A stretch of 64,000 nt of DNA, from contig OZ244561.1 in assembly GCA_965217585.1 (NCBI GenBank), positions 5,888,001 to 5,952,000 of the forward strand. Direction: 5' to 3'. The notes below the pieces were generated by a model that saw only the letters and a program-made list of their open reading frames with translations, did not search any database and was not told the DNA's origin. A program made the position numbers and the translations under genes. This DNA is from Candidatus Latescibacterota bacterium (GTDB lineage: Bacteria > Latescibacterota > UBA2968 > UBA8231). Shown piece after piece: positions 610-29,607 of the stretch (positions are counted from its first letter, which is position 1; the number at the start of each line of letters is the position of its first letter).

Positions 610-933
610 ATGGTAACTATAACGGAAGCCGCGGCTGAAAAGATCAGGGATTTGCTCGGCGAACAGAGCAACGAGGGACACGGATTGCGCATGGGCGTGA
701 TGGGTGGGGGGTGTTCGGGGTTCCAGTACAAGCTGGATTTCGAGCAAAGTGCCGGCGACATGGACCACGTCTTTGAAATCGCCGGCGTCAAGATCTTCAT
801 CGACATGAAGAGCAGCCTCTATCTCAGCGGCGTGACGCTCGACTACCACGACGGGCTGATGGGGGCGGGCTTTAAGATCGAAAATCCCAATGCCCGCACT
901 ACCTGCGGATGCGGTGAGTCCTTCAGCGCCTGA
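610..933 (+). CDS. iscA: A-type Fe-S cluster carrier (IscA/ErpA/HesB)
   Basis: GGGCSG and C-terminal TCGCGESF motifs. Confidence 0.93.
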   Translation: MVTITEAAAEKIRDLLGEQSNEGHGLRMGVMGGGCSGFQYKLDFEQSAGDMDHVFEIAGVKIFIDMKSSLYLSGVTLDYHDGLMGAGFKIENPNARTTCGCGESFSA

Positions 934-943
934 GCGACGGGCT

Positions 944-2113
944 GTGCAAATTCCAGTCTATATGGACAACATGGCTACCACGCCGGTTGACCCGCGCGTC
1001 TTGGCGGACATGTTGCCGTACTTCGGCACGCACTTCGGCAATGCGTCCAGCAAGACCCACGCCTTTGGTTTGGCAGCCGCCGATGCCGTCGAAAAGGCGC
1101 GGGAAGAGGTGGCCGGGTTGATTGGCGCGCGCGCTCAGGAGATCGTCTTTACAGCCGGAGCTACGGAGGCCAACAATTTGGCCATAAAAGGCGCGTTCCA
1201 GATGGCGCCCCCTGGAGCGCACATCGTCACCTGTGCCATTGAGCACAAGGCCGTCTTGGAGTGTTGCCACACCTTGGAGCAGCAAGGGGTGGAGGTAACT
1301 TATTTGCCCGTGGACCGCGACGGTCAGATCGACCTCGACCAGCTAGCGGCGGCAATCACTCGGCGGACGGTCCTCATCTCGCTCATGGCCGCCAACAACG
1401 AGATTGGGGTTTTGCAACCGCTGGCGGCGATTGGGCAGCTAGCTCGCGAGCGCGGCGTCTTGTGGCACTGCGACGCAGCTCAAGCCGTCGGCAAGGTGCC
1501 GCTCGATGTGGAAGCGCTCGGCATCGACCTGCTCTCGGTCTCCGGCCACAAGCTCTACGCTCCCAAAGGCGTCGGCTTCCTCTACGTGCGCTCGCGCAAG
1601 CCGCGCGTGCGCTTGCAGGCCCAAGTCGAGGGCGGCGGGCAGGAGCGCGGCCTGCGTGGCGGCACCCTCAATGTGCCGGGGATCGTCGGTTTAGGGTGCG
1701 CCTGTCAGTTAGGGCGCGAGGAGATGCCCGCAGAAGCGGCGCGGCTGGTGCAAATGCGGCGGCGGCTATGCGCCGGGCTAGAGGCCGCGGGTCCCTTGGT
1801 TGTCAACGGCCATGCGGAAGAGCGCCTGCCGGGCAACCTCAACGTGAGCTTTCCCGGAGTTGACGGAACCGAACTGCTCTTGGGATTGCGCGAGATCGCG
1901 CTGTCTTCGGGTGCGGCCTGTTCATCGCGGACGAGCGTGCCCTCACACGTCCTCAGAGCCATCGGCGCAAGCGACGATTTGGCGCGGGCCTCCCTGCGCT
2001 TTGGGTTGGGGCGTTTTAATACTATGGCAGAAGTGGAGTTTGCCATCGACCGCACAGCCGCGCAGGTTGCACGCTTGCGCGACTGTGCATTAGCAATCGA
2101 GGAGAGAGTATGA
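944..2113 (+). CDS. iscS: cysteine desulfurase (IscS/NifS)
   Basis: YMDNMATTP, SGHK (PLP lysine), SSGAACSS catalytic Cys loop. Start moved to GTG 944. Confidence 0.93.
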   Translation: MQIPVYMDNMATTPVDPRVLADMLPYFGTHFGNASSKTHAFGLAAADAVEKAREEVAGLIGARAQEIVFTAGATEANNLAIKGAFQMAPPGAHIVTCAIEHKAVLECCHTLEQQGVEVTYLPVDRDGQIDLDQLAAAITRRTVLISLMAANNEIGVLQPLAAIGQLARERGVLWHCDAAQAVGKVPLDVEALGIDLLSVSGHKLYAPKGVGFLYVRSRKPRVRLQAQVEGGGQERGLRGGTLNVPGIVGLGCACQLGREEMPAEAARLVQMRRRLCAGLEAAGPLVVNGHAEERLPGNLNVSFPGVDGTELLLGLREIALSSGAACSSRTSVPSHVLRAIGASDDLARASLRFGLGRFNTMAEVEFAIDRTAAQVARLRDCALAIEERV

Positions 2114-3297
2114 CTGTTACATCCAATCAGCTACTAGAGAGCGTAAAGGCCGAGATCGCCGAAGTGACCCCGGCCGAGATCCAATCAGCCCGCCAAGCTG
2201 GCCGGCCGGTTCACCTCGTAGATGTGCGCGAGCGGGAAGAGGTCATGGACGGCTATATCCCAGGGGCCGAGTTGATCCCACGCGGTTTTTTGGAGCTCAA
2301 CGTCGAAGAAGACGTGACCGTAGATCGCGACGCGGAAATCGTGCTCTATTGTGCCGGAGGCAACCGCTCGGCCTTGGCAGTGCGCGATTTGGCCTTTATG
2401 GGCTACACCAATGCCAAGTCCATGATCGGCGGTTTCAAAGGCTGGAAGGATGCCGGCTATGCGATCGAGCAGGGTGGCCTGCTCTCCGAAGAGGACTTGC
2501 AGCGCTACGCCCGGCATCTCATCCTGCCCGAAGTCGGGGAGAAGGGGCAACAGCAGTTGCTCAAGGGGCGGGTGCTGCTGGTGGGAGCGGGTGGTTTGGG
2601 TTGCCCGACGGCCCTGTACTTGGCCGCGGCCGGCGTCGGCAAGATCGGCTTGGTAGATGCCGATGTCGTCGATAAAAGCAACTTGCAGCGGCAAGTGCTT
2701 TTCGGCGAGTCCGATCTCGGTCGGCCCAAAGTCGAGGCCGCCCGCGACCGGCTGCTCGATATCAATCCCGGCATCGAGGTACACACGCACTACGAGCTAC
2801 TGACGTCGCACAATATTTTCGAGGTCATGGATGGCTACGACATCGTAGTCAATGGCTGCGACAACTTCCCGACCCGCTATTTGGTCAACGACGCGGCCGT
2901 AATGCAAAAGAAGCCCGTGGTTGACGGCAGCATTTTTCGCTTTGAAGGTCAAGCCACCGTGTACGTGCCCGGGGACGGCCCGTGCTATCGCTGCCTCTAT
3001 CCCGAGCCGCCGCCGCCTGGGGAGGTGCCTAGCTGCGCCGAGGGTGGGGTCTTAGGGGTCTTGCCGGGCATCATCGGGTTAGTGCAGGCCACCGAGGTCG
3101 TCAAGCTGCTCTTGGGACAGGGCACCTCCTTGGTGGGGAGGGTGATGCTCTACGACGCGATGGAGATGAAATTCCGCGAACTCAAGCTCCGGCGCGACAG
3201 TGAGTGCCCGGTGTGTGGCGACAGCCCGACCGTCACCGAGCTGATTGACTACGAGCAGTTTTGCGGCCTGCCCTCGCATAGCGAGGCCGCGGGTTGA
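2110..3297 (+). CDS. moeB: MoeB/ThiF E1-like adenylyltransferase with N-terminal rhodanese domain (MoeZ-type)
   Basis: Rhodanese LYCAGGNRS; RYARH, GAGGLG, SNLQRQ; Zn motifs CYRC and CPVC. Confidence 0.9.
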   Translation: MTVTSNQLLESVKAEIAEVTPAEIQSARQAGRPVHLVDVREREEVMDGYIPGAELIPRGFLELNVEEDVTVDRDAEIVLYCAGGNRSALAVRDLAFMGYTNAKSMIGGFKGWKDAGYAIEQGGLLSEEDLQRYARHLILPEVGEKGQQQLLKGRVLLVGAGGLGCPTALYLAAAGVGKIGLVDADVVDKSNLQRQVLFGESDLGRPKVEAARDRLLDINPGIEVHTHYELLTSHNIFEVMDGYDIVVNGCDNFPTRYLVNDAAVMQKKPVVDGSIFRFEGQATVYVPGDGPCYRCLYPEPPPPGEVPSCAEGGVLGVLPGIIGLVQATEVVKLLLGQGTSLVGRVMLYDAMEMKFRELKLRRDSECPVCGDSPTVTELIDYEQFCGLPSHSEAAG

Positions 3298-3323
3298 TCT
3301 CGATTCACAGTTATTATTTGCAC

Positions 3324-3359
3324 GGCGCTCTCTCGCACTAGAGGGAGCGCCTTTTCTTT
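3324..3359 (+). terminator. intrinsic terminator
   Basis: GGCGCTCTCTC-loop-GAGGGAGCGCC followed by TTTTCTTT after moeB. Confidence 0.8.
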
Positions 3360-3371
3360 GGGGAGAATTTG

Positions 3372-3974
3372 ATGGAGCAGACCGGGGCGGGTTTTTTGGC
3401 GTTACCGGATAACCCAGACCGGGATCCGACGTTGGTTTGGCGGGAAGTTTTTGGCAACGACCAGCCGGTGGAGGTCGAAATCGGCATTGGCAAAGGACGC
3501 TTTATCATCGACGCGGCCAGTCGTCAGCCCGCAGTGAATTTCGTTGGGGTCGAATGGGCGGCCAAATACGTGCGCATTGCCCGCCAGCGCGCCGCGCGCC
3601 GCAATCTCGACAACGTGCGGTTCGCGCACGTGGATGCGCGGGAATTCGTCGAGTTCTTCGTGGCCGCTGCATCGGTGCGAGCCTATCACATCTACTTTCC
3701 CGATCCCTGGCCCAAGAAGCGGCACCACAAGCGGCGACTCTTTAACGAGGAATTTCTGCGCGAAGTCGAGCGCACTTTGTGCGTGGGCGGTCAGTTGTGG
3801 CTGGCCACGGATTACGCCGACTATTTCGACGTCATGCTCGCCGCGCTGGAAACTAGCCCGTGCTTAGTGGAGGCGGATGTCGAGTGGCTGGGGGCGCGGA
3901 CGAATTACGAAGACAAGTTCATAGCCCAGGGCAAGCCGATCTACCGCCGGGTCATGGAGAAGATGCCGGCGTAA
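3372..3974 (+). CDS. trmB: tRNA (guanine-N7)-methyltransferase
   Basis: EIGIGKG, FPDPWPKKRHHKRRL, ATD, TNYE motifs. Confidence 0.95.
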   Translation: MEQTGAGFLALPDNPDRDPTLVWREVFGNDQPVEVEIGIGKGRFIIDAASRQPAVNFVGVEWAAKYVRIARQRAARRNLDNVRFAHVDAREFVEFFVAAASVRAYHIYFPDPWPKKRHHKRRLFNEEFLREVERTLCVGGQLWLATDYADYFDVMLAALETSPCLVEADVEWLGARTNYEDKFIAQGKPIYRRVMEKMPA

Positions 3975-3994
3975 AGGTATCCATCGAGCACGCA

Positions 3995-4030
3995 AAAAGG
4001 GGTTGGACCACGCGATGGCCAACCCCTTTT
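3995..4030. terminator. bidirectional intrinsic terminator
   Basis: AAAAGGGGTTGG...CCAACCCCTTTT inverted repeat after trmB. Confidence 0.8.
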
Positions 4031-4176
4031 CTATGTCAAGATGACAGTAGAGGCGATAATTAAAGAGAGCGGGTAGTAATTGGGGCACACACAAGATAGT
4101 GTGATATGCACACAAATAAGTGTAATTCATTCTTTAAAATGGCCGTATCTATCTGAAAAATATGGAAAAAATGTGC

Positions 4177-4240
4177 TTGACAGCCCTATTCCTATAGGTG
4201 TATTTTGGAAAGTGGTGGAAAGTGGTGGAAAGTGGTGGAA
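4177..4240 (+). promoter_or_regulatory. dcw promoter with MraZ-binding tandem repeats
   Basis: TTGACA 4177-4182 and TATTTT 4201-4206, then three perfect AGTGGTGGAA repeats (4211-4240), i.e. GTGG at a 10-bp period, the known MraZ operator pattern. Confidence 0.85.
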
Positions 4241-4269
4241 CGGAAGTTTTAACTTGGTGTGGGCATCAA

Positions 4270-4704
4270 ATGGCACAGTTTTTCACAGGGAGACACGAGG
4301 TTCCTGTCGATGACAAGGGACGGATTTTTGTGCCTGCGGAGTTCCGCAAGAAACTGCCGCCAGAAGCTGACGACACACTCGTGGTGGTGCGGGGTTTCGA
4401 CCGATGCCTGACGGCCTATCCCCAGCACACTTGGGAAGAGACCGCTCAAAAGCTGTTAGACTTGCCCCAGACCAATCCCGAAGTGAGGGCCTTTATCCGC
4501 TCCATGCTCTCGCGCGCAGCTGAAGTCAAAATGGACCGGCAGGGGCGAATCGGTATTCGGCGAGATCTCTTGAAGCTCGCTAATATCAACGGCCAGATGG
4601 TGATTATTGGAGTTTTGAACAAGTTGGAGTTTTGGAATCCAGACGACTGCGAGGAGTTCCCGCCCATGGAAGAAGTGGCGGATAGCTTCGATATAAACCT
4701 GTAA
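4270..4704 (+). CDS. mraZ: division/cell wall cluster transcriptional repressor MraZ
   Basis: VDDKGRIFVP and MDRQGRI repeats; first gene of the dcw cluster. Confidence 0.95.
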   Translation: MAQFFTGRHEVPVDDKGRIFVPAEFRKKLPPEADDTLVVVRGFDRCLTAYPQHTWEETAQKLLDLPQTNPEVRAFIRSMLSRAAEVKMDRQGRIGIRRDLLKLANINGQMVIIGVLNKLEFWNPDDCEEFPPMEEVADSFDINL

Positions 4705-4734
4705 AGAATTAAACAATGCTAAACTGGGAACAAC

Positions 4735-5661
4735 ATGGCGTACCACATTCCGGTCATGGTCGAGGAAGTGGTCGCGGGGCTGGTCGCCGATCCGGACGGA
4801 GCGTACGTGGATGCGACGGTCGGCGGCGGCGGCCACAGTTGGGCATTGCTTCAGGCCCTCGGTCCCAAGGGGCGATTGCTCGCAGTGGATCGGGACCAGG
4901 AAGCCGTAGCGGCAGCGCAAGCGAGGTTGGCGACAGATACGCGGGTCGTCGTGAGGCGAGGCCGCTTTGCCGAATTGAACGAGTTGCTGGCGCGGGAGGG
5001 GATCGGGCCCTTGAGCGGAGTTCTGTTCGACTTAGGGGTTTCCTCACATCAGATCGATGCACCGGCCCGGGGATTCAGCTACCAGGCCGACGGGCCTCTC
5101 GACATGCGGATGGATGCGGAAGTTGGTCCCACGGCTGCCGAATTGATCGCGACGTGCAGCGAGGCCGAGTTGGCCGAGCTGATTGCGCGCTACGGAGAAG
5201 AGCGCGCGGCGCGGCGGATCGCGCGCTCGATCTGCCGGCAGCGGCAGCTCGAGCCCTTGACCACTACGCAGGCTTTGCGGCAGGCTGTAGCGGCTACACG
5301 GCCCCAGATGCTCAACAAGACGCTGGCGCGCGTGTTCCAAGCGTTGCGCATTGCCGTCAACGACGAGTTGGGGCAGTTGCAGGCGGGGTTGGCGGCTGTG
5401 GAGGCAGGGCTGAAGCCCGGCGGCCGGCTGGCCGTCATGGCCTATCACTCCTTGGAGGATCGGTTGGTCAAGCAGCATCTCGCGGCACTGGTGCGCGGCT
5501 GTATTTGTCCGCCGCGCTTGCCCGTTTGCACCTGCGGGCGGAAACCGTCGTTCAAGCGAGTGGGTCACAAGTTGCAGAGGGCGAGCGAGGCCGAGGTGAA
5601 ACAAAATACTCGGGCGCGCAGCGCCGTTTTGAGAATCTACGAAAAAATCGAGGCAGGCTAA
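4735..5661 (+). CDS. rsmH: 16S rRNA m4C1402 methyltransferase
   Basis: HIPVM, DATVGGGGHS, DLGVSSHQ, FQALRIAVNDEL, YHSLEDR. Confidence 0.97.
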   Translation: MAYHIPVMVEEVVAGLVADPDGAYVDATVGGGGHSWALLQALGPKGRLLAVDRDQEAVAAAQARLATDTRVVVRRGRFAELNELLAREGIGPLSGVLFDLGVSSHQIDAPARGFSYQADGPLDMRMDAEVGPTAAELIATCSEAELAELIARYGEERAARRIARSICRQRQLEPLTTTQALRQAVAATRPQMLNKTLARVFQALRIAVNDELGQLQAGLAAVEAGLKPGGRLAVMAYHSLEDRLVKQHLAALVRGCICPPRLPVCTCGRKPSFKRVGHKLQRASEAEVKQNTRARSAVLRIYEKIEAG

Positions 5662-5662
5662 T

Positions 5663-5962
5663 ATGAGCAAAGGCGGAATTTCCTGTGTGAAGTACGTGCT
5701 CCTCATAGGGATGCTGGCCGGGGCGGCCCTCTTCCACGTCTGGCAAAAGGTCGAAATGGCCCGGGTGGCCGGCGGCATTAACACGGCTGAGACGCAAATA
5801 GTCGAACTCGACAGAGAGCGCACCCAGCTATTGGCGGCCATCTCGGTGCGGAAAAACTCCGGTTTTGTCGAGAAGGTGGCCCTCGGCCAGCTCGGCATGA
5901 TCTACCCCTCGAAAACTGTGGATAGCATGGGCGGCGCATTGGCGCATTGGGAAGGAGATTGA
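5663..5962 (+). CDS. ftsL: cell division protein FtsL
   Basis: 99 aa, single TM followed by coiled coil ending LGM, between rsmH and the PBP gene. Confidence 0.8.
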   Translation: MSKGGISCVKYVLLIGMLAGAALFHVWQKVEMARVAGGINTAETQIVELDRERTQLLAAISVRKNSGFVEKVALGQLGMIYPSKTVDSMGGALAHWEGD

Positions 5963-7926
5963 TGGGGCCACGGGTACAACATACGGGCATTGGTCGACTG
6001 CGCTGGGTCGTGGTTTTGGGCGCGGTGGCGTGGTTGGGTTTGTCTGCACGCCTCGTCCAAATCCAGATCTTCAGGCACGAGGCGTACAGCGCTGAGGCCC
6101 ACGAGCAGTACCTTGAGCGCCGCACCCTGAAAGCGAGTCGGGGTCGGGTTGTAGATCGGCGCGGCAACAACTTGGCCGTAGATGTCCAAGCCACGTCGTT
6201 TTACGCCAATCCCGAGCAGGTTGAGGAACCCAAGCGCGTAGCCGTCCACTTCGCGCTCCTGAGCGATAATCGGGCCGAGTCCATCGAGCGCCAATTGCGC
6301 GGGGACAAGCAATTTATCTATCTGGCGCGTCAGGTAGTTGACGCGAATGTGGGCGAGGTCGCATACGCCGGTGTGTTCCAACACCCGGAGACCCGCCGCC
6401 AGTACCCCTTGGGGCCGCTGGCCGGCCAACTCATCGGGCACACCAACATCGACAACAGCGGTCGCGAGGGGATTGAGCGGACCTTCGACGACATACTGCG
6501 CGAAAAGGACGGCTCGATATTGGAATACGTCGATGCGCGGGGCAAGCAAGTACCCGGGCGGCATCAGCGACGCGAAGAGCCGGAGCACGGCCGCGACCTT
6601 ATGCTGACCATCGACGCGGTCTATCAGAGCATTCTAGAGGAAGAGTTGCAACGGGCCATCGACGGCTCAAAGGCCCAAGGTGCTTTGGGCGTCATCATCG
6701 CCCCGCGCAGCGGCGAGGTGCTGGCCATGGCCAACCTGCCGCTTTTCGACCCTAATAAGGCGTCCCGCTCGTCGCCGGAACTCAGGCGCAACCGCGCGAT
6801 AACCGACGTGTACGAACCCGGTTCGACCTTCAAAGTCATCGCGGCCGCCGCCGTCCTCGAAGACGGGCTGGCCAGCCTGCATGATCGCGTCTTTTGCGAG
6901 CAGGGAATATTCAAGTTGGCCAATGGGGACGCGATCCGCGATGTCCAGCCCCACGGCGATTTGCTCTTTGCTCAGGTCTTGGAAAAATCGAGCAACATCG
7001 GCACGATCAAGCTGGCGCAGCGGCTGTCGCGGCCGCGCTTTTACGAATACATCCGCAATTTTGGCTTTGCCATTCGCACTGGCATTGACTTGCCGGCGGA
7101 AACGTCTGGTTTATTACAGGAGGTCGATCAGTGGTCCAAGCGGTCGCTGGCGACCATCGCCATCGGGCAGGAAATCGGCGTGACGGCCCTACAGCTCGCC
7201 ATGGCGTACGGGGCCATTGCCAACGGCGGCGTGCTGATGGCACCGCGGCTCGTCGCCGGTACGATTGGGCCGGACGGTCGGCTCGACGATCGCGGCGGTC
7301 CCCAGCCGATCCGCCGGGTCGTGAGCCGGCAGACGGCAGCGACGCTGAGCGAGGTGCTGACCGGAGTCGTGGAAAAGGGCACCGGGCAAAAGGCCCGCAT
7401 CAAAGGCGTGGCCGTGGCTGGGAAGACGGGCACGGCCCAGTGCGCTATAACCGGTGGCAGCGGCTACGACCCCAATGCCAGAATCGCTTCATTCGTCGGC
7501 TTTCTGCCGGCCGACGATCCCCAGTATGTGTGCGTGGTCATGGTCGAAAACCCCCGTGTGAACGGGTGGGGAGGATACGTAGCGGCCCCAGCCTTCCGCC
7601 GGGTGATGGAGCGGATCATCAGCACGCCCGGCGGCCTGTGGGTCGAGCCGGCTGCCAAACATCCGCAGAAAGAGGAGCCAGCCGTGCCGGACCTGCGCGG
7701 CATGACCCAAGCGGTCGCCCGCTTTCAGGCAAAGATGCGGGGATTGCCGGTGGCCTTTTCCGGCGCGGGCACCGTGGTCGTCAATCAGTCACCCCTGCCG
7801 GGCCGGGCTGGCCGCGTCGAGCAAATCAACTGCACGCTGGGCGATGGGGTCGCCCGCAGCCCGTGGAAAATGCGGCAGGCGCGCCTCGTCGGAAACATTC
7901 CAGCCCAAAGTTCGAGAGGTATTTAG
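5962..7926 (+). CDS. ftsI: class B penicillin-binding protein (FtsI/PBP3) with C-terminal PASTA-like domain
   Basis: RGRVVDR, EPGSTFK (SxxK), SSN, KTG; VPDLRG PASTA start. Confidence 0.93.
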   Translation: MGPRVQHTGIGRLRWVVVLGAVAWLGLSARLVQIQIFRHEAYSAEAHEQYLERRTLKASRGRVVDRRGNNLAVDVQATSFYANPEQVEEPKRVAVHFALLSDNRAESIERQLRGDKQFIYLARQVVDANVGEVAYAGVFQHPETRRQYPLGPLAGQLIGHTNIDNSGREGIERTFDDILREKDGSILEYVDARGKQVPGRHQRREEPEHGRDLMLTIDAVYQSILEEELQRAIDGSKAQGALGVIIAPRSGEVLAMANLPLFDPNKASRSSPELRRNRAITDVYEPGSTFKVIAAAAVLEDGLASLHDRVFCEQGIFKLANGDAIRDVQPHGDLLFAQVLEKSSNIGTIKLAQRLSRPRFYEYIRNFGFAIRTGIDLPAETSGLLQEVDQWSKRSLATIAIGQEIGVTALQLAMAYGAIANGGVLMAPRLVAGTIGPDGRLDDRGGPQPIRRVVSRQTAATLSEVLTGVVEKGTGQKARIKGVAVAGKTGTAQCAITGGSGYDPNARIASFVGFLPADDPQYVCVVMVENPRVNGWGGYVAAPAFRRVMERIISTPGGLWVEPAAKHPQKEEPAVPDLRGMTQAVARFQAKMRGLPVAFSGAGTVVVNQSPLPGRAGRVEQINCTLGDGVARSPWKMRQARLVGNIPAQSSRGI

Positions 7927-9411
7927 ATGGAACTAAAATACCTGCTCGAAGAGCTATCTGACGCCTGCGTGGAGGGCGACCGAGATATTGATCTAGGGCA
8001 GATCCGCTGCGATTCGCGCTGCGTGGAGGAAGGCGACTTTTTCGTGGCCGTGCGCGGGGGGCAGGAGCAGGACCGGCACCGCTTTGTCGACCATGCCATA
8101 GCCCGTGGTGCCCGCGCCGTGATGGTGGAGGAACGGATCGATTGTGCTGGAGCGACCCGGGTACAGGTGGCGGACTGCCGGGCCGCGCTAGCCCGAATGG
8201 CGGCGCGCTTTTACGCCTTTCCCGGACGAGCGCTGCTCAACGTCGGCGTCACTGGCACCAACGGCAAGACCACTACTGCCTTCCTGCTCAGGAGCGCCCT
8301 CGAAACCGCCGGTTTGCCGTGCGGGTACTTGGGGACCTTGGGATTCTGGGGCGATGGCGAATTGGAGAAGATGGACAATACTACGCCCGAGGCCTCCCAA
8401 CTCCACGGCTTACTGCGTCGGCTCGTCGATGCTGGCAAAAAAGCGGCCGTGCTAGAAGTATCTTCCCATGGGTTGGCGTTAAAGAGGGTGGAGGGCATTC
8501 CCTTTCGGGCGGCGGTCTTTACCAATTTGACGCGCGATCACTTGGATTTTCACGGGACTTGGGAGGCGTACTTTGCGGCCAAGGCCCGGCTTTTCGAGGG
8601 TCTGCAAGAAGACGGGATTGCGGTGATTAACGCCGACGACGCCCACGCCGACGAATTGGTCCGCAGGACCCAGGCGCGCGTCGTGACGTACGGTTGTGGC
8701 CCGGAGGCCGAGGTGCGGTTGCAAAGCGCGACCGCTAGTCCACAGGGAACGCACCTGTGTTTGGATACCTCAGCCGGTCCCATCGAGATGCAGACGCATT
8801 TGATCGGCCGTTTCAACTACTACAACCTCATGGCCGTCGTGGCCACCGGGTTGGCACTGGATTTGGATGCCGCGGCTCTGTGCCGTGGCTTGGTCGCCCT
8901 AGAGAGCGTCCCGGGCCGCTGCGAGCGGATCGTCGAGGGGCAGGACTTCGCAGTTATTGTGGATTACGCCCACACTCCAGACGCGCTGGAGAGGGTTTTG
9001 CACGCCGCACGAGACTTGGGGAGCGGCCGCTTGATTTGCGTCTGCGGCTGCGGTGGAGATCGAGACCGCGGCAAGCGGGCACTGATGGGCCGTGCCGTCG
9101 GCGAGTTGGCCGATTGGACGGTCTTGACTTCGGACAATCCGCGCAGCGAGGACCCGCAGCATATCATCGACGAGATGGCCGCTGGCGCGCCCGACAGCAG
9201 TGCGATACACAGCGAAGTTGACCGCGCACAAGCCATTGCCATATCCCTCACCGCCGCGCATAGCGGGGATGTCGTGGTCATTGCCGGCAAGGGGCATGAA
9301 CAGGAACAGGAGCTGGCTGATCGCGTCGTGGCCTTTGACGACCGCGAAGTTGCGCGGCGCGTGCTGCGGGGCTTGCGCGCTGGGGAAAGGCAGCTATCAT
9401 GCGCGCCGTGA
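7927..9411 (+). CDS. murE: UDP-MurNAc-dipeptide:meso-DAP ligase
   Basis: GTNGKTT, EVSSH, NLTRDHLDFH, DYAHTPD, DNPR (DAP-type specificity motif). Confidence 0.96.
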   Translation: MELKYLLEELSDACVEGDRDIDLGQIRCDSRCVEEGDFFVAVRGGQEQDRHRFVDHAIARGARAVMVEERIDCAGATRVQVADCRAALARMAARFYAFPGRALLNVGVTGTNGKTTTAFLLRSALETAGLPCGYLGTLGFWGDGELEKMDNTTPEASQLHGLLRRLVDAGKKAAVLEVSSHGLALKRVEGIPFRAAVFTNLTRDHLDFHGTWEAYFAAKARLFEGLQEDGIAVINADDAHADELVRRTQARVVTYGCGPEAEVRLQSATASPQGTHLCLDTSAGPIEMQTHLIGRFNYYNLMAVVATGLALDLDAAALCRGLVALESVPGRCERIVEGQDFAVIVDYAHTPDALERVLHAARDLGSGRLICVCGCGGDRDRGKRALMGRAVGELADWTVLTSDNPRSEDPQHIIDEMAAGAPDSSAIHSEVDRAQAIAISLTAAHSGDVVVIAGKGHEQEQELADRVVAFDDREVARRVLRGLRAGERQLSCAP

Positions 9412-10775
9412 CCCTGAGCGAGATGATGCAGTGGACGGCTGCCGATCTGGTCGGCAGCCTCCGGCCAGATTGCGTCCTACAAGCGGTGGCGACCGACAGC
9501 CGGTCCATCGACGAGGGCGAGTTGTTCGTTGCGCTGCGGGGCGAGCACTTCGACGGGCACGACTTCGTCGAGGCCGCCTTTGCCCGCGGCGCGTGCGCGG
9601 CCTTAGTGGAACGCCGTTGGCCAGGGTTGGACCGGGCGGCCTCCGGTCCGCTGTTGGCCGTTGACTCGACGCTGCAAGCGCTGGGCGATATGGCGCGGGC
9701 GTATCGACGGCACTGGGAGGTACCAGTGGTGGCTGTCGTAGGCAGCGCGGGCAAGACGACGACCAAGGAAATGATCGCCGCTGTCTTGGGACAGCGGTAT
9801 AGCATTTTGAAAACCATCGGCAGCGAGAACAACGAGATAGGGGTGCCCCGCACTCTGCTGCAATTGTCGCCGAGCCACGAGGCGGTGGTGTTGGAACTGG
9901 CGGCGCGGCGGGTAGGGGACATTCGCTACTTGTGTTCGGTTGCCGAGCCTACTATTGGGGTTCTGCTCAACATTGGGACTGCACACATAGAATTTTTCGG
10001 GTCTGTAGAAGGAGTGGCCAAAGCTAAAGGGGAGCTTCTGGATTATTTGGACGAGTCTTTAACGGCTCTCGTCAACGCCGATGACCGTGTCGTGGCTCAG
10101 GAGGTAAAGAGGACAAAGGGGAGACTCCTGACCTTCGGTTTTGCGCGTGAGAGCGAGTTTCGTGGGGAGAGACTCGTACTCGACCAGAAGGGCTGCGGCC
10201 ACTTCCTTCTACACCATGTTCCCATCGATCTCAATATTCCGGGGCGGCACAACGCGTACAACGCCTTGGCGGCGGCCGCCGTCGGCCGCATCCTCGGCGT
10301 GCCTTGGGAAGGGATCCAGCGTGCCCTCGCCGATTTTCGGGCGGTGAGCCAACGCGGCGAGATCGTGCGCAAAAATGGGATCGCAGTAATCGACGATTGC
10401 TACAACGCCAGTCCCGGCTCGATGTCGGCCGCACTCGACCTCCTCGTCGATGTGCCCGGTGAGCGGAAAATCGCCGTGCTCGGCGACATGCTAGAGCTCG
10501 GTGCGGAGAGCGGTCCGTTGCACGCGGCCGTCGGTGAGAAGGCTGCCGCGTGTGCCGATGTCGTACTGGCTGCTGGCCGCGAGAGCACGCACTTGGTGGC
10601 CGCGGCCCGCGCGGCTGGCATGGCTCAAGACGCGGCTCGCCACTTCGAGCAGCCCGAGCAACTCGGCGAATTCGCCGTGGTGCAATTGCGCCACGGCGAT
10701 GCGGTCTTAGTCAAGGCCTCTCGGGCCATGGCCTTTGACCGAGTCGTCGAGCGCATTCTGCAGCAGTTGAGATAG
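9399..10775 (+). CDS. murF: UDP-MurNAc-tripeptide:D-Ala-D-Ala ligase
   Basis: DGHDF, GSAGKTTTKE, DDCYNASP, GDMLELG, KASR. Confidence 0.95.
   Translation: MRAVTLSEMMQWTAADLVGSLRPDCVLQAVATDSRSIDEGELFVALRGEHFDGHDFVEAAFARGACAALVERRWPGLDRAASGPLLAVDSTLQALGDMARAYRRHWEVPVVAVVGSAGKTTTKEMIAAVLGQRYSILKTIGSENNEIGVPRTLLQLSPSHEAVVLELAARRVGDIRYLCSVAEPTIGVLLNIGTAHIEFFGSVEGVAKAKGELLDYLDESLTALVNADDRVVAQEVKRTKGRLLTFGFARESEFRGERLVLDQKGCGHFLLHHVPIDLNIPGRHNAYNALAAAAVGRILGVPWEGIQRALADFRAVSQRGEIVRKNGIAVIDDCYNASPGSMSAALDLLVDVPGERKIAVLGDMLELGAESGPLHAAVGEKAAACADVVLAAGRESTHLVAAARAAGMAQDAARHFEQPEQLGEFAVVQLRHGDAVLVKASRAMAFDRVVERILQQLR
9953..10236 (+). other. candidate large structured RNA domain embedded in the murF coding sequence
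   Basis: Nested stems 9953-9962/10227-10236, 10004-10019/10197-10213 (16 bp), 10035-10041/10184-10190, plus internal hairpins. G-U wobbles favour the sense strand. Coincides with atypical codons. Confidence 0.6.
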
Positions 10776-10830
10776 CTCGCTCCCACCGGGCGCGTTCTCA
10801 ATCCCCTAGCAACTAGCGAGTTCCTTACTG

Positions 10831-11949
10831 ATGATAGCTGTTCAGCGCGACAGCATGTGCGTGTTGCTGATCTGCCTGACGCTGGTAGGTCTGGGGCTAG
10901 TCATGGTCTATAGCGCTAGTTCGGTTTTGGCGAACGTGCGTTTTGGTGACTCGGGCCTCTTTCTAAAGAAGCAATCCATCCGCGTCCTCATTGGCTTGGT
11001 GCTCATGCTCGCGTTTTCGCGGCTACCTTTGCATTGGTGGGCGCGGCTTTCGCGCCCAATCATGTTGTTGGCCCTCTTGTCGCTCTTGCTGGTCTTGGCG
11101 TGGGGCCATGGCGCAGCCCAACGCTGGTTGAGCATTCCGGCTTTGGGTGGTGGCTTGGCCTTTCAGCCGGCCGAGTTTGCCAAGCTGGCGCTGGTGCTCT
11201 ACTTGGCGGATGTCTTGGTGCGCAAGCGCGACGAGCTACACGACTTTAGCCGCGGGTTTATCCCCCGTTTGTTGGTCGTCGGCTTCGCCCTCGTGCTCAT
11301 CGTATTACAGCCCGATTTGGGGACGGCCATTGCACTGGGGCTGATTGCCTTGCTCATGCTGTGGGTCGGCGGGATGCGCTTGTATCACTTGGCCGGGGCT
11401 GGGTTGCTCGCGCTGTTGGGCGTTGGACTTTCCCTGATGCATTCGAGTTATCAGATGCGTCGTTTGCTCAACTTTATTGACCCAGAACGCGACCCGGATG
11501 GCTTCTATCAACTCAAGCAGTCGCTCTGGGGCATGGGCAACGGCGGTCTTTTGGGGGTGGGTTTGGGCAACAGCATGCAAAAAGAGCAGTACCTGCCCGA
11601 GCCACACACAGATTTTGTCTTCTCGGTCATCGGCGAGGAAATGGGGCTTGTGGGTACGCTGGTCGTACTAGGGCTTTTCGCGGCTTTCTCTTTTTACGGG
11701 TTGCGCATTGGGACCCGCGCCGGCGATACGTATGGTTTTTTGGTCGCCACCGGCATTACGGCGATGATTTCGATATACGCCCTGCTGAACATCGGCGTGG
11801 TCATCGGGGTACTACCCACCACTGGCTTGCCGCTACCCTTTGTCAGCTACGGAGGCTCGTCGCTGATGGGGAATATGGCGGGAGTGGGCATCTTGCTGGG
11901 GGTTGCCCGCACGGCCCCCGGACACCAAGAGGGCTTGGTGCGTGGGTAG
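10831..11949 (+). CDS. ftsW: SEDS peptidoglycan polymerase FtsW
   Basis: MVYSAS, QPAEFAK, QPDLGT, LPEPHTDF, LPFVSYGGSS. Confidence 0.95.
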   Translation: MIAVQRDSMCVLLICLTLVGLGLVMVYSASSVLANVRFGDSGLFLKKQSIRVLIGLVLMLAFSRLPLHWWARLSRPIMLLALLSLLLVLAWGHGAAQRWLSIPALGGGLAFQPAEFAKLALVLYLADVLVRKRDELHDFSRGFIPRLLVVGFALVLIVLQPDLGTAIALGLIALLMLWVGGMRLYHLAGAGLLALLGVGLSLMHSSYQMRRLLNFIDPERDPDGFYQLKQSLWGMGNGGLLGVGLGNSMQKEQYLPEPHTDFVFSVIGEEMGLVGTLVVLGLFAAFSFYGLRIGTRAGDTYGFLVATGITAMISIYALLNIGVVIGVLPTTGLPLPFVSYGGSSLMGNMAGVGILLGVARTAPGHQEGLVRG

Positions 11950-11951
11950 CG

Positions 11952-13337
11952 ATGAAGACTCTCTTCGACCAATATCGCCGCGTGCATCTCGTCGGCATCG
12001 GCGGAGCAGGCATGGAGGGCTTGGCCCGGCTCCTCGCTGCCAAAGGCTGCTCGGTAAGCGGCTCGGATCAGGCCGACTCGCGCAGCGTCGCGCTGCTGCG
12101 CCAAGAGGGATTCTCCGTCGCGGTGGGGCATGACGATCAGCTCGTACAAGGCGTGGATCTAGTGGTGTATTCGGCCGCTGTCCCGGCTGACAACCCCGAG
12201 CGGCGGGCTGCCGCGCAAGAGGGAATCCCCACGGCGAGTCGGGCCGAGGTGCTCGGGGAGCTGTCCCGCGCACCGTTGACCCTCGCCGTAGCTGGTGCCC
12301 ACGGCAAGACGACGACCGCTTCGATGGTGGCGGCGATCTTGCGCCGCGCCGGCCTCGATCCCCAGGTCTTGGTCGGGGGCTGGATAAACGGGCGGCCGCA
12401 GGCCGAGCTGGGGAGCGGCGAGATCTTCGTGGTGGAGGCCGACGAGTTTGCCGGCAGCTTCTTGCACCTGTATCCGAGCTTGGCCCTCGTGACAGGTATA
12501 GACGCCGAACACCTCGATTACTATGGGAGCTTGGAGGCCCTCGAACGGGCCTTCGGCCAATTTCTCGCGCGTCTGCCCTTCTGCGGCCGCAGCGTGTTGG
12601 CCGGGGACGGGCTGGTCGGGGAGCGGGTGCTGGCCGGCTTGCAGCGCCCCCATCAGACCTATGGCACGGATGGCGACAACGACTACCAGATCGCCGAGCT
12701 CGAAGAGCGGGCTTGGGGCAGCCGGTTTGCCCTGTGTTTCGACGGGCAAAAGCTAGGCGAGATCGAGTTGCAGGTCCACGGCGTACACAATGTCCGCAAT
12801 GCCGCTGGGGCCGCTGCGCTGACCTGTGCACTACAGGTGGAGTTCGCAGTGATCGCCGACGCTTTGGAGCAGTTTGGCGGGGCCGACCGGCGCTTTCAGC
12901 ACAAGGGGGAATTCGCCGGTGTGCTGGTCGTGGACGACTACGCTCATCACCCGGCCGAATTAGCGGTGGCCTTGGCCGCCGCGCGGCAGAGTGGTCGCCG
13001 AGTCATCGCCGTTTTCCAGCCCCACCTGTACTCGCGCACCCGCGAATTGGCTGCGGCCTTTGCCCGCGAGCTAGCCGCGGCCGACTACGTGGTGCTGGCC
13101 GCGGTCTTTGCCGCGCGGGAGGCCCCCATGCCCGGCGTGGACTCCGAGCTAATCGCGGGAGCCTTGCGCGCCAGCGGATACAAAACCGTGGAGTACCTGC
13201 CGGATAGGGAGCAGCTCGTCGCCCACTTGGTGGATATCTGTCGCCGGGGCGACTTGGTGCTGGTCATGGGGGCCGGTGACATCGGCGAGGCGGCTGCGGA
13301 ACTGACCGCGGCCTTGGCGACCGGAGAGCGCTCGTGA
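11952..13337 (+). CDS. murC: UDP-N-acetylmuramate-L-alanine ligase
   Basis: GIGGAGM, GAHGKTTT, EADE, DDYAHHP, FQPHLYSRT. Confidence 0.96.
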   Translation: MKTLFDQYRRVHLVGIGGAGMEGLARLLAAKGCSVSGSDQADSRSVALLRQEGFSVAVGHDDQLVQGVDLVVYSAAVPADNPERRAAAQEGIPTASRAEVLGELSRAPLTLAVAGAHGKTTTASMVAAILRRAGLDPQVLVGGWINGRPQAELGSGEIFVVEADEFAGSFLHLYPSLALVTGIDAEHLDYYGSLEALERAFGQFLARLPFCGRSVLAGDGLVGERVLAGLQRPHQTYGTDGDNDYQIAELEERAWGSRFALCFDGQKLGEIELQVHGVHNVRNAAGAAALTCALQVEFAVIADALEQFGGADRRFQHKGEFAGVLVVDDYAHHPAELAVALAAARQSGRRVIAVFQPHLYSRTRELAAAFARELAAADYVVLAAVFAAREAPMPGVDSELIAGALRASGYKTVEYLPDREQLVAHLVDICRRGDLVLVMGAGDIGEAAAELTAALATGERS

Positions 13338-16651: not shown

Positions 16652-17107
16652 ATGGCAGACATTCGCGTTGGCGTAATCATGGGCAGCACCTCGGATGAGG
16701 ATACCATGCGCAAGGGGGCGGCGGTGCTCGAAGAGCTGGGCCTTGGCTACGAGATGGTCGTATCTTCGGCCCACCGCAACCCCGAGCGCACCGCTGTTTG
16801 GGCCAGTGAGGCGGCTGGCCGCGGCCTCAAGGTGATCATCGCCGGTGCCGGCTTAGCTGCGGCTCTGCCCGGAGTGGTGGCGGCACATACGACGCTGCCG
16901 GTCATCGGAGTTCCCATTGCCTCGGGTGCGCTTCGTGGAGTCGATTCTCTCTACTCCATCGTGCAGATGCCTCCGGGAATCCCGGTGGCGACCGTCGGCA
17001 TTGACAACGCCCGCAATGCGGCCATGCTGGCGGCCCAAATCATCGCCCTGTCCGACGAGGCGGTCGCCCAGGCCATTGAAACCTATCGCGCACAGTGGAA
17101 CCCCTAA
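16652..17107 (+). CDS. purE: N5-CAIR mutase
   Basis: [24 protein letters not shown]. Confidence 0.96.
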
Positions 17108-17135
17108 GTAGGGGCGACCGGCCGGTCGCCCCTAC
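17108..17135. repeat. GTAG-type REP-like perfect palindrome
   Basis: GTAGGGGCGACCGGCCGGTCGCCCCTAC directly after the purE stop; identical copy at 29580-29607. Confidence 0.92.
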
Positions 17136-17161
17136 ATAATGTTGAAAGGACGCGATGAGCA

Positions 17162-17785
17162 GTGGCCAATACAAGTCGCATTTCCAAATTGCTTTCGCTG
17201 ATGCTCAGGCATCGGCCCGACGAATTTGGACTGGAGATTGATGCCTACGGCTACGCGCCGTTGGATCAGGTAGTGCAAGGAGTACAGGAACGCTATTCAG
17301 AGGTACCCGAAGCCGAGATCGTCGCCCTCGTCAAGGATCCAGAGCAGTATCGCTTTGAACTGAACGAGTTTGGCATCCGCGCGCTGTACGGGCACAGTTT
17401 TTTCGTCGATATGGACGGCGAGCCTATGGACCCGCCACCCGATCGGCTCTACATGGGCACGACCCGCAGCGAGGCCCAGCGCTTTGCCCGCGAGGGCATT
17501 TCCCCGGGCGATCGCTACTACGTGCATCTGTCGCTGACGCGCGAGGCGGCCGAGTCGCACAGCCACCAACGCGACACCCCCTGCGTGGTGGAGATTCTCG
17601 CGGCCAAGGCCCACGACGAGGGCTGTCGCTTTTTTGCCCGCGGCGCGGTCGTGCTAACCGAAGAGATCCCGGCCAGTTGCATCGGCCCAACCCACGGCAG
17701 CCAGCAAAAAGCCCTCGATGTCGCCGAGATGCCGGCGGCTGGCGGGACAAGCTACGGCCGCAAGCCCCGGTTTTCGGCCCGTTGA
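17162..17785 (+). CDS. kptA: RNA 2'-phosphotransferase (KptA/Tpt1)
   Basis: SKLLSLMLRH, RFE, IRALYGHS, LYMGT, RYYVHLS motifs. Confidence 0.88.
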   Translation: MANTSRISKLLSLMLRHRPDEFGLEIDAYGYAPLDQVVQGVQERYSEVPEAEIVALVKDPEQYRFELNEFGIRALYGHSFFVDMDGEPMDPPPDRLYMGTTRSEAQRFAREGISPGDRYYVHLSLTREAAESHSHQRDTPCVVEILAAKAHDEGCRFFARGAVVLTEEIPASCIGPTHGSQQKALDVAEMPAAGGTSYGRKPRFSAR

Positions 17786-29579: not shown

Positions 29580-29607
29580 GTAGGGGCGACCGGCCGGTCG
29601 CCCCTAC
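29580..29607. repeat. GTAG-type REP-like perfect palindrome
   Basis: Identical to 17108-17135; its CTA (29604-29606) is the TAG stop of the minus-strand dehydratase. Confidence 0.92.

Follow-up and report, generated by a model that had tools for sequence, protein, structure and literature searches.

Can a stretch of bacterial DNA that encodes part of an essential enzyme also encode a structured RNA? To our knowledge, structured RNAs of bacteria have been sought almost only between genes. The question is raised here by murF in a 64,000-nt stretch of the genome of a Candidatus Latescibacterota bacterium (assembly GCA_965217585.1, contig OZ244561.1, positions 5,888,001 to 5,952,000 of the forward strand), which is referred to as the window and to which all coordinates apply unless a contig is named. 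A preliminary description made from the letters of the window had proposed an RNA structure of ~280 nt at 9953-10236, in the middle of the gene. Here we report that positions 10004-10213 are a conserved structured RNA of ~210 nt, which lies in frame on the sense strand of murF. The gene (9399..10775, plus strand) encodes UDP-MurNAc-pentapeptide synthetase of 458 amino acids; as had been claimed, the open reading frame (ORF) is intact and the MurF motifs are in place, with three domains identified by Pfam (Mur_ligase, Mur_ligase_M, Mur_ligase_C). The source genome is a single 7.3-Mb contig, and its relatives in public records are uncultured metagenome-assembled genomes (MAGs), labelled mostly Candidatus Latescibacterota or Gemmatimonadota. 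Orthologues of murF were found in 41 of 41 relatives.

The constraint on the element was apparent at synonymous sites, which vary about five- to ten-fold less there than in the remainder of murF. In a genus set of murF sequences from 23 species (protein identity 74-98%; codons threaded on the protein alignment), third-position diversity was 0.03-0.06 at ~10030-10200 versus a murF mean of 0.26, and amino-acid diversity in the element (0.05-0.09) was not below that of adjacent murF. Over 4.3 kb around the gene, nucleotide diversity was 0.033-0.042 in the element, 0.095 in the next lowest interval and typically 0.15-0.2, and the element was the sole deep diversity trough within 7.9-12.2 kb. In a family set of 43 sequences, the synonymous difference, counted for pairs sharing the same amino acid, was 0.12-0.25 in 9996-10220 versus ~0.6 along the gene, and the trough was repeated when three further families (f2-f4) were taken alone (0.10-0.28 versus ~0.6; 20 sequences). 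Freely varying synonymous sites in orthologues, which the preliminary description had named as the observation that would speak against an RNA, are the opposite of what was seen at each of these three levels. The DNA of the element is 77-99% identical across the family; MurF is 52-64% identical between genera and 41-49% across the class.

The zone of strong synonymous constraint (9996..10220, plus strand) comprises the RNA element and a few flanking bases. Because the family trough ends sharply near 9990 and 10215, the constrained unit is ~215 nt rather than 284 nt; synonymous sites 5' of ~9990 are free to vary, and the unit coincides with a 16-bp stem (10004-19/10197-213) as its closing helix. 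The originally proposed extent of ~280 nt was therefore too large. Its outer stem (9953-62/10227-36) exists in the window sequence but lies outside the constrained zone, is paired in 86.5% of cells within the genus and 59.5% in other genera, and shows ordinary synonymous variation; a companion stem, TGGGA..ACAT with ATGT-TCCCA, is likewise entirely outside the strongly constrained zone.

RNAalifold, applied to 59 distinct sequences that had been aligned with MAFFT (alignment A1, not fitted to structure), predicted a consensus structure of 54 pairs in six helices on the plus strand. In this model, the fold is a long closing rod (P1-P2-P3-P4) that is broken by conserved loops and ends in a large junction with the P6 hairpin. 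The closing helix P1 (10004-25/10191-213) has 19 pairs, with 98.0% of cells paired; its outer part is the 16-bp stem named above, which was already part of the preliminary description, appears in the minimum free energy (MFE) folds and has five pairs changed on both sides. P2 (10035-41/10184-90, CTTCTGG/CCAGAAG), also described before, is paired in 100% of cells, with three pairs changed on both sides, and P3 (10049-59/10169-80, with A10178 bulged) is paired in 99.1%, with four such pairs, and is also present in the MFE fold of the window sequence. P4 (10065-70/10149-54) is paired in 98.9% of cells in the family and 76.5% class-wide, and the weak P5 (10079-82/10089-92) in 95.8% and 66.8%, respectively; the lower class-wide scores of both helices stem partly from a one-base register shift in MAFFT. 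P6 (10097-103/10125-31, TCAGGAG/CTCCTGA) bears a 21-base loop and, in agreement with the earlier proposal, is paired in 99.3% of cells with three pairs changed on both sides. Between P4 and P6, the consensus fold places the 5' strand of a junction or large internal loop, including P5 (10071..10096), and an unpaired 3' strand (10132..10148); if P5 is unformed, the two strands make an internal loop of 26 nt and 17 nt. We presume that an N-x-D-D protein motif encoded in 10071-10096 may account for much of the conservation there.

Every stem named in the preliminary description is present in the letters of the window, and two of the three inner hairpins did not hold up in the alignment. The hairpin at 10050-73 (GACGAG/CTCGTC) is paired in 93.2% of cells and shows nothing beyond chance relative to shuffled alignments; the conserved pairings of this region are the long-range helices P3 and P4. 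The hairpin at 10149-81 is paired in 84.0%, with two pairs broken in 37 and 26 of the 59 sequences, respectively, and no excess over shuffles.

The consensus structure is borne out by covariation. Overall, 98.6% of its 3186 cells are paired, compared with 44-50% after a shift of the 3' partner by 1-3 columns, and changes on both sides affect 17 pairs and 144 cells, compared with 4-8 pairs and 8-25 cells after sliding; on none of five measures did any of 500 shuffles match the observed value. Examples are the pairs 10010/10207 (GC 32, AU 24, GU 3) and 10011/10206 (GC 27, AU 17, GU 14) in P1, 10037/10188 (CG 42, UA 16, UG 1) and 10038/10187 (CG 54, UA 5) in P2, and 10097/10131 (CG 27, UA 26, UG 6) and 10098/10130 (CG 30, AU 21, GC 4) in P6. 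Two of the compensating changes, GGA to AGA and CTT to TCT, are non-synonymous: compensation at pair 10011/10206 alters MurF from Gly to Arg and from Leu to Ser, so that the RNA has shaped the protein. In the class-wide alignment, 91.3% of cells are paired (43-52% when slid), with 22 compensatory pairs. The folding energy points in the same direction, with an MFE of -90 kcal/mol for 10004-10216 (z -4.16; 0 of 200 shuffles) and a z score of -3.43 for a distant homologue.

Covariation also identifies the strand. Among the 3186 cells of the consensus structure, 459 are G-U and 22 are A-C, in line with the G-U wobbles that the preliminary description had placed on the mRNA strand; since the compensatory intermediates are wobbles on the sense (mRNA) strand, this is the strand under selection. 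These results bear directly on the explanation that no RNA function is involved and that the conservation reflects an overlapping reading frame, a DNA-binding site, recent spread by recombination, or chance folding. It draws on the 284-nt span 9953-10236, which has an MFE of -103.3 kcal/mol, a modest gain over shuffled sequences (z -2.47; 3 of 200 shuffles), and folds similarly on the opposite strand (z -2.68), and on a G+C content of 0.45-0.59 across 9950-10250, lower than the 0.62-0.74 over most of the surrounding murF. The codon usage had been called atypical, and it is: the G+C content at third codon positions is 0.61 in the element and 0.76 outside, and rare codons (AGA, AGG, ACA, CTT, TTA and TCT among others) are frequent. 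An overlapping ORF was rejected, as each of the other five frames contains stops in 77-81 of 81 sequences (0-4 stop-free sequences per frame). A DNA site could yield neither compensatory changes nor the asymmetry between G-U and A-C, the families hold their own variants of the element, which indicates evolution with the lineages and not spread, and the depth of contigs from RNA libraries is far above that of the flanks (see below). We regard the absence of an RNA function, which these data refute on most counts, as scarcely credible.

The unpaired parts of the fold are conserved as well. Three G-rich motifs stand out, all on the plus strand. The first is a nine-base bulge, AAAGGGGAG (AAAGGGGAA in other families), at 10026..10034, whose third positions 10028 and 10031 are kept in at least 95% of 79 class sequences. 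The second, AAAGGGGAG at 10115-10123, is located in the 21-base loop of P6 (continuing as ...ACAAAGGGGAGA to 10124), where AAGGGGAGACTCCT is kept across the class and also in the more distant families f6 and f12. The third, GTGGGGAG or GUGGGGAG (10162-10169), occupies the asymmetric loop between P4 and P3 (10155..10169), which is unpaired in the model except for G10169-U10059; GTGGGGAG is invariant in the 79 class sequences and lost in f6. The recurrence of GGGGAG at 10029, 10118 and 10164, in wholly or mostly unpaired regions, had been pointed out before and agrees with the consensus, in which these sites are unpaired or nearly so and their third positions are at least 95% conserved. Across the element, 22 of 73 third-codon positions reach this level in the 79 class sequences, and they are clustered in or beside the three motifs. 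Two mutually exclusive pairings are open to the invariant CUCCU: it can join the upstream AGGAG to form P6 or, as happens when a distant homologue is folded by MFE, the neighbouring AAGGGG.

The element is distributed throughout the class. A DNA search found it in 72 of 76 genomes of the family and in 17 of 18 genera; the order-level search covered the same 76 genomes, and a 20-kb blastn comparison with five relatives merged the element into longer matches and was uninformative. With a covariance model built for the purpose (R1), full-length matches (E 1e-34 to 1e-67) were obtained in 125 of 132 class genomes, namely in 71 of 75 genomes of f1, 28 of 31 of f2, 3 of 3 of f3 and 22 of 22 of f4, in addition to the source genome. 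In the seven class genomes negative for R1, no murF orthologue was found either (G007 and G018 gave matches at the level of paralogues only; G072, G080, G114, G116 and G117 gave no murF match at E 1e-40), so that every class genome in which murF was found carries the element. The source genome has a single copy, 119 of the 125 matched genomes have a single match and the other six add only a split or weak extra match, and in all 23 loci fetched from outside the family the element is inside murF, although the encoded proteins are only 41-49% identical to that of the window. In a sample of the phylum outside the class, weaker R1 matches occurred in f6 (2 of 2 genomes; E ~1e-16), f12 (1 of 1) and f13 (1 of 3), and none of the 30 genomes of f5, f7, f8, f9, f10, f11 and f14 had a match. 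Good preservation in f6 is limited to the P6 hairpin and the first two of the G-rich motifs. A search for the exact three-motif pattern, with one genome per species, returned 64 stretches, nearly all of them in MAGs labelled Latescibacterota or Gemmatimonadota; a two-motif pattern was not found on viral contigs.

Two observations concern the copies in MAGs. One genome contains a weak second R1 match (G053:C3, minus strand; L211 679-805; 26.8 bits), which consists of P1, an AAAGGGG bulge and P2 around a 53-nt insert and is not located in any same-strand ORF of at least 120 amino acids. Moreover, MAG assemblies tend to break at murF or to lack it, and two contigs of G058 (C8 and C115) end within the element; near-identical elements in co-occurring strains may fragment such assemblies.

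No known RNA family accounts for the element. A search of Rfam 15 with both strands of 9000-11200 at E values up to 10 gave no real match, 6S RNA included, which bears out the statement of the preliminary description that no family was recognised; the two chance matches (E 4.9-6.7) were to a microRNA model (19.5 bits; gathering score 73) and a long non-coding RNA model (13.3 bits; gathering score 60). Full-text searches of the literature, with supplementary files outside their scope, yielded no description of an RNA within murF or within this lineage.

The form of the RNA nevertheless invites comparison with housekeeping ribonucleoprotein (RNP) RNAs, and the element might be the 6S-like RNA of the lineage, binding the RNA polymerase holoenzyme, or might hold the 30S subunit through three sites resembling Shine-Dalgarno (SD) sequences. 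It is ~207 nt long and rod-like, both of its ends are paired in P1, the contig depth is high, and an unformed P5 would leave the internal loop between P4 and P6 described above. The signal recognition particle RNA and RNase P RNA were found elsewhere in the source genome, and the 6S model had no match in that complete genome or in any of 114 sampled genomes of f1-f4; yet this negative means little, as the same model was positive in only 4-5 of 14 control genomes. The distributions of 6S RNA and the element are not complementary, with weak matches to both models in f12 and to neither in f8, f10 and f11. Known 6S RNAs have a long terminal stem, whereas the stem beyond the bubble of the element is only 7 bp with a 21-nt loop. 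As for the 30S subunit, each of the G-rich motifs can pair with the canonical 3' tail of the 16S rRNA of the source genome (-8.2 to -8.6 kcal/mol), but the invariant GGGG would be a poorer partner of the anti-SD sequence than GGAGG, which synonymous changes could approach. The Rfam search of the element was negative as well. We consider a housekeeping RNP RNA improbable. Sub-threshold matches to the 6S model were confined to two outgroup families, with five of six genomes of f9 and the one genome of f12 (L243-L248; 22.7-43.2 bits, cut-off 46.4) and are perhaps divergent 6S RNAs of the phylum.

Evidence on expression comes from public RNA libraries. Fourteen runs from four studies contain between a quarter and half of the words sampled from a query of 1 kb, and one run per study (X1, X5, X7, X9) was examined through its assembled contigs and their k-mer depths. 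In three of the four studies, contigs of the element had depths of 684-9321 versus 3-250 for the flanks; contig mean depths are poor measures, and stretches that show no cover in a run are no evidence of absence. In X7, the element was represented by contigs 10010-10130 (depth 1044), 10114-10171 (1063) and 10158-10216 (684), with flanks at 5.9 and 2.9; in X9, by contig 10022-10131 (1912), with flanks at 3.7-9.6; and in X1, by contig 10094-10165 (9321), with flanks at 248 and 41. The element contigs 10010-10130 of X7 and 10022-10131 of X9 agree with the window at every position (121 and 110 nt, respectively), and this stretch carries variants unique to the window among the 23 genus sequences, which makes it unlikely that depth was summed over distant relatives. 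Adapter letters directly 5' of 10010 mark fragment ends in X7 and X9, two X7 contigs continue past 10216 into A-rich letters, and the high-depth contigs end 3 nt beyond P1. These data are a strong hint at an abundant, discrete RNA of ~207 nt, apparently spanning 10010..10216 of the plus strand with approximate ends.

Alternatively, the element might sense a ligand or process itself, as the glmS ribozyme does; in response to a peptidoglycan precursor, it would cleave the dcw (division and cell-wall) mRNA or refold it, giving feedback on the synthesis of the cell wall. The multi-helix fold with its conserved junction and loop nucleotides, the role of MurF in completing the cytoplasmic precursor, the recurrence of the end at 10010 in two studies and the alternative pairings of CUCCU would all suit such a function; the element, however, has no similarity to any riboswitch or ribozyme of Rfam, and its apparent 5' end is inside P1. 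A 5' end within the closing helix is atypical of known self-cleaving classes. We consider this explanation very improbable. A broader proposal, that the element is a core RNP or sensor RNA of this uncultured class (a stand-in for 6S RNA, a 30S-binding RNA or a self-processing sensor of peptidoglycan precursors) that cannot be lost because it is locked in an essential gene and is always made together with the division operon, has a small chance of being correct.

The explanation that we favour, and consider probable by a modest measure, is a processed ORF-internal RNA that acts in trans through its G-rich loops and resembles FtsO, a small RNA (sRNA) located in ftsI of the dcw cluster of Escherichia coli and apparently released from the mRNA by RNases (Adams et al. 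2021, eLife, PMC7815308). The RNA would be cut out of the mRNA of the dcw operon: no conserved promoter precedes and no terminator follows the element, with no sigma-70-like promoter in 9700-10500 (a scan that does not cover non-sigma-70 promoters) and no terminator after P1, and processing, not a separate promoter, would be its source. The hexamer at 9988-9993, which resembles TAGAAT, was rejected as a promoter, as its synonymous sites are not conserved and a -35 partner is missing. The ~207-nt RNA might then persist stably long after decay of the flanking mRNA, and the three exposed motifs (AAAGGGGAG, AAAGGGGAG, GUGGGGAG) could bind a C/U-rich RNA or a protein partner in trans. Its amount would then mirror how the operon for cell-wall synthesis and division is transcribed and turned over. 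Action in trans is proposed because unpaired bases at degenerate positions are invariant, which would be needless for a mere roadblock. The interpretation in the preliminary description, a dual-coded cis-regulatory or excisable RNA in the dcw transcript, thus survives in part: the dual-coded sense-strand RNA without an Rfam family stands, and excision fits the contig depth over ~10010-10216. The GGGGAG loops may, as it proposed, bind a protein or act as SD-like decoys. Its extent of 280 nt is not supported, nor are two of its three inner hairpins.

The serious rival is a role in cis, in operon processing. Here, the element would be a checkpoint for processing or decay of the mRNA, or a roadblock for ribosomes or exonucleases, that sets the ratio of upstream (mraZ to murF) to downstream (ftsW to ftsZ) products or the output of MurF, and the stable fragment would be a by-product. 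The position in the middle of an 11-gene dcw cluster is in keeping with this, and flank depth falls across the element in three of four runs (X1, 248 to 41; X7, 5.9 to 2.9; X9, ~7-10 to 3.8) but rises in X5 (2.75 to 4.68). P1 is a long near-perfect helix, just beyond which the high-depth contigs end; such helices are recognised by double-strand RNases and by stalled 3' exonucleases. A roadblock, however, needs no conserved unpaired sequence, yet the strongly conserved third positions cluster in the G-rich motifs, and neither half of the mRNA looks protected, given how scarce both flanks are in comparison with the element. A cis role appears possible but is the less likely account.

Several points weigh against a processed RNA that acts in trans. 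The region is translated and is unwound by each passing ribosome, which makes a role in cis on the mRNA possible. Neither Hfq (PF17209), on which base-pairing sRNAs usually rely as a chaperone, nor CsrA (PF02599), the protein that GGA-loop sponges usually target, was found in the complete 7.3-Mb source genome by searches that were positive in five and three control genomes, respectively. No partner of the element was found, and the sole C-rich candidate is the leader of the RNase III gene. Of 11 clusters of three CTCCCC in the source genome, one is the complement of the element itself, and the tightest is this leader, which follows fabF (G000:C1:7260784-7260891; L212) and has three short hairpins in tandem, whose CUCCCC loops could pair with the GGGGAG motifs by complementarity. 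As a conserved partner, the rnc leader was rejected, since it is present in close relatives and absent from more distant members of the genus. The first 24 kb of the window, and with them the whole dcw cluster, are free of CTCCCCT. With respect to expression, contigs cannot prove the ends, strand or level of an RNA; in X5, a single 834-nt contig with a mean depth of 222 spans the element and its flanks without a break (neighbouring contigs, 3-5); and the type of adapter at 10010 would mean the opposite strand if the X7 and X9 libraries were dUTP-stranded, contrary to the G-U evidence.

The genomic setting of murF is a dcw cluster of 11 genes, with murF in its middle and an order read as mraZ, rsmH, ftsI, murE, murF, ftsW-type, murC-type, ftsQ, ftsA, ftsZ. 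The ftsW-type (SEDS) gene and the murC-type ligase gene follow 3' of murF at 10831-13337, and the interval from murF to ftsQ is without mraY, murD and murG, unlike the textbook order of the cluster. Upstream of mraZ (3975-4197), a terminator-like hairpin (AAAAAGGGGTTGGCC...GGCCAACCCCTTTT) is followed by repeats resembling CACACAA / GTGTGA, which are possibly operator repeats of MraZ. Elsewhere in the window, the perfect palindrome GTAGGGGCGACCGGCCGGTCGCCCCTAC occurs at 17105-17138 and again at 29580-29607, both times between genes, and may be a repeated terminator or resemble repetitive extragenic palindromic elements; a gene for an RNA 2'-phosphotransferase of the Tpt1/KptA type (17162-17785) is located between purE and glnE.

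In the murF element, a single stretch of bacterial DNA appears to give rise to two products, which is rare: ~70 codons of an essential enzyme double as an RNA with a predicted six-helix fold. As the surrounding protein diverged to ~45% identity, the RNA remained nearly fixed in sequence, and its abundance seems to lie far above that of the mRNA of its host gene. The compensation at 10011/10206 illustrates that the needs of an RNA can drive amino-acid change. The lineage has no cultured member, and several of its genomes and RNA libraries are derived from sponges. Intragenic scans for synonymous constraint can reveal new RNA families, and the covariance model of the murF RNA family is ready for use.

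The element shares features with several known systems. Like the glmS ribozyme, it would be a structured RNA in the mRNA of an enzyme of cell-wall precursor synthesis with a defined end of the cleavage type; the glmS ribozyme, however, is located in the 5' untranslated region, has a known ligand (glucosamine 6-phosphate, GlcN6P) and fold, and is represented in Rfam. CsrB and RsmZ present GGA loops to CsrA, and RsaI of Staphylococcus is a G-tract RNA; with these, the murF element has in common several copies of a short purine-rich motif displayed in the loops or bulges of a stable RNA, and it differs by its three GGGGAG motifs, its position inside an ORF and a source genome in which CsrA was not found. 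CsrB carries far more GGA motifs than the three or four unpaired ones of the element. Like the element, 6S RNA (RF00013) measures ~200 nt. It is abundant, its 5' and 3' ends pair to form a long closing stem, it contains a large internal loop and it matures from a longer transcript, features that the element appears to share, but the murF element has no match to the model, has a very short terminal stem (7 bp) and is embedded in a coding sequence.

The closest likeness is to FtsO as described by Adams et al. (2021; PMC7815308). FtsO reads outnumber those of the ftsI mRNA by orders of magnitude, identity at its wobble positions is 91% compared with 67% for the whole gene, and it sponges the sRNA RybB with Hfq, pairing through an unstructured region; its describers called it the first sRNA internal to a bacterial ORF for which a regulatory role had been documented (PMC7815308). 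On that account, both RNAs lie on the sense strand within an essential coding sequence of the dcw cluster, and in both the wobble positions are more conserved than elsewhere in the gene (here, a synonymous difference of ~0.15 versus ~0.6). A further hallmark of ORF-internal sRNAs, a discrete transcript far in excess of the host mRNA, is suggested for murF by the contigs of three of the four studies. Set against the same account, the murF element differs in its host gene (murF instead of ftsI) and phylum and in its lack of sequence similarity to Rfam families, it occurs in a genome in which Hfq was not found, and it has a covariation-backed six-helix fold that is conserved class-wide, whereas FtsO pairs through an unstructured region. 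If the favoured explanation is true, the element would be a second such case after FtsO, again from the dcw cluster and much more elaborately folded. We rate it as an RNA of this kind; its size and host gene are unusual, as are the covarying fold and the conservation throughout the class.

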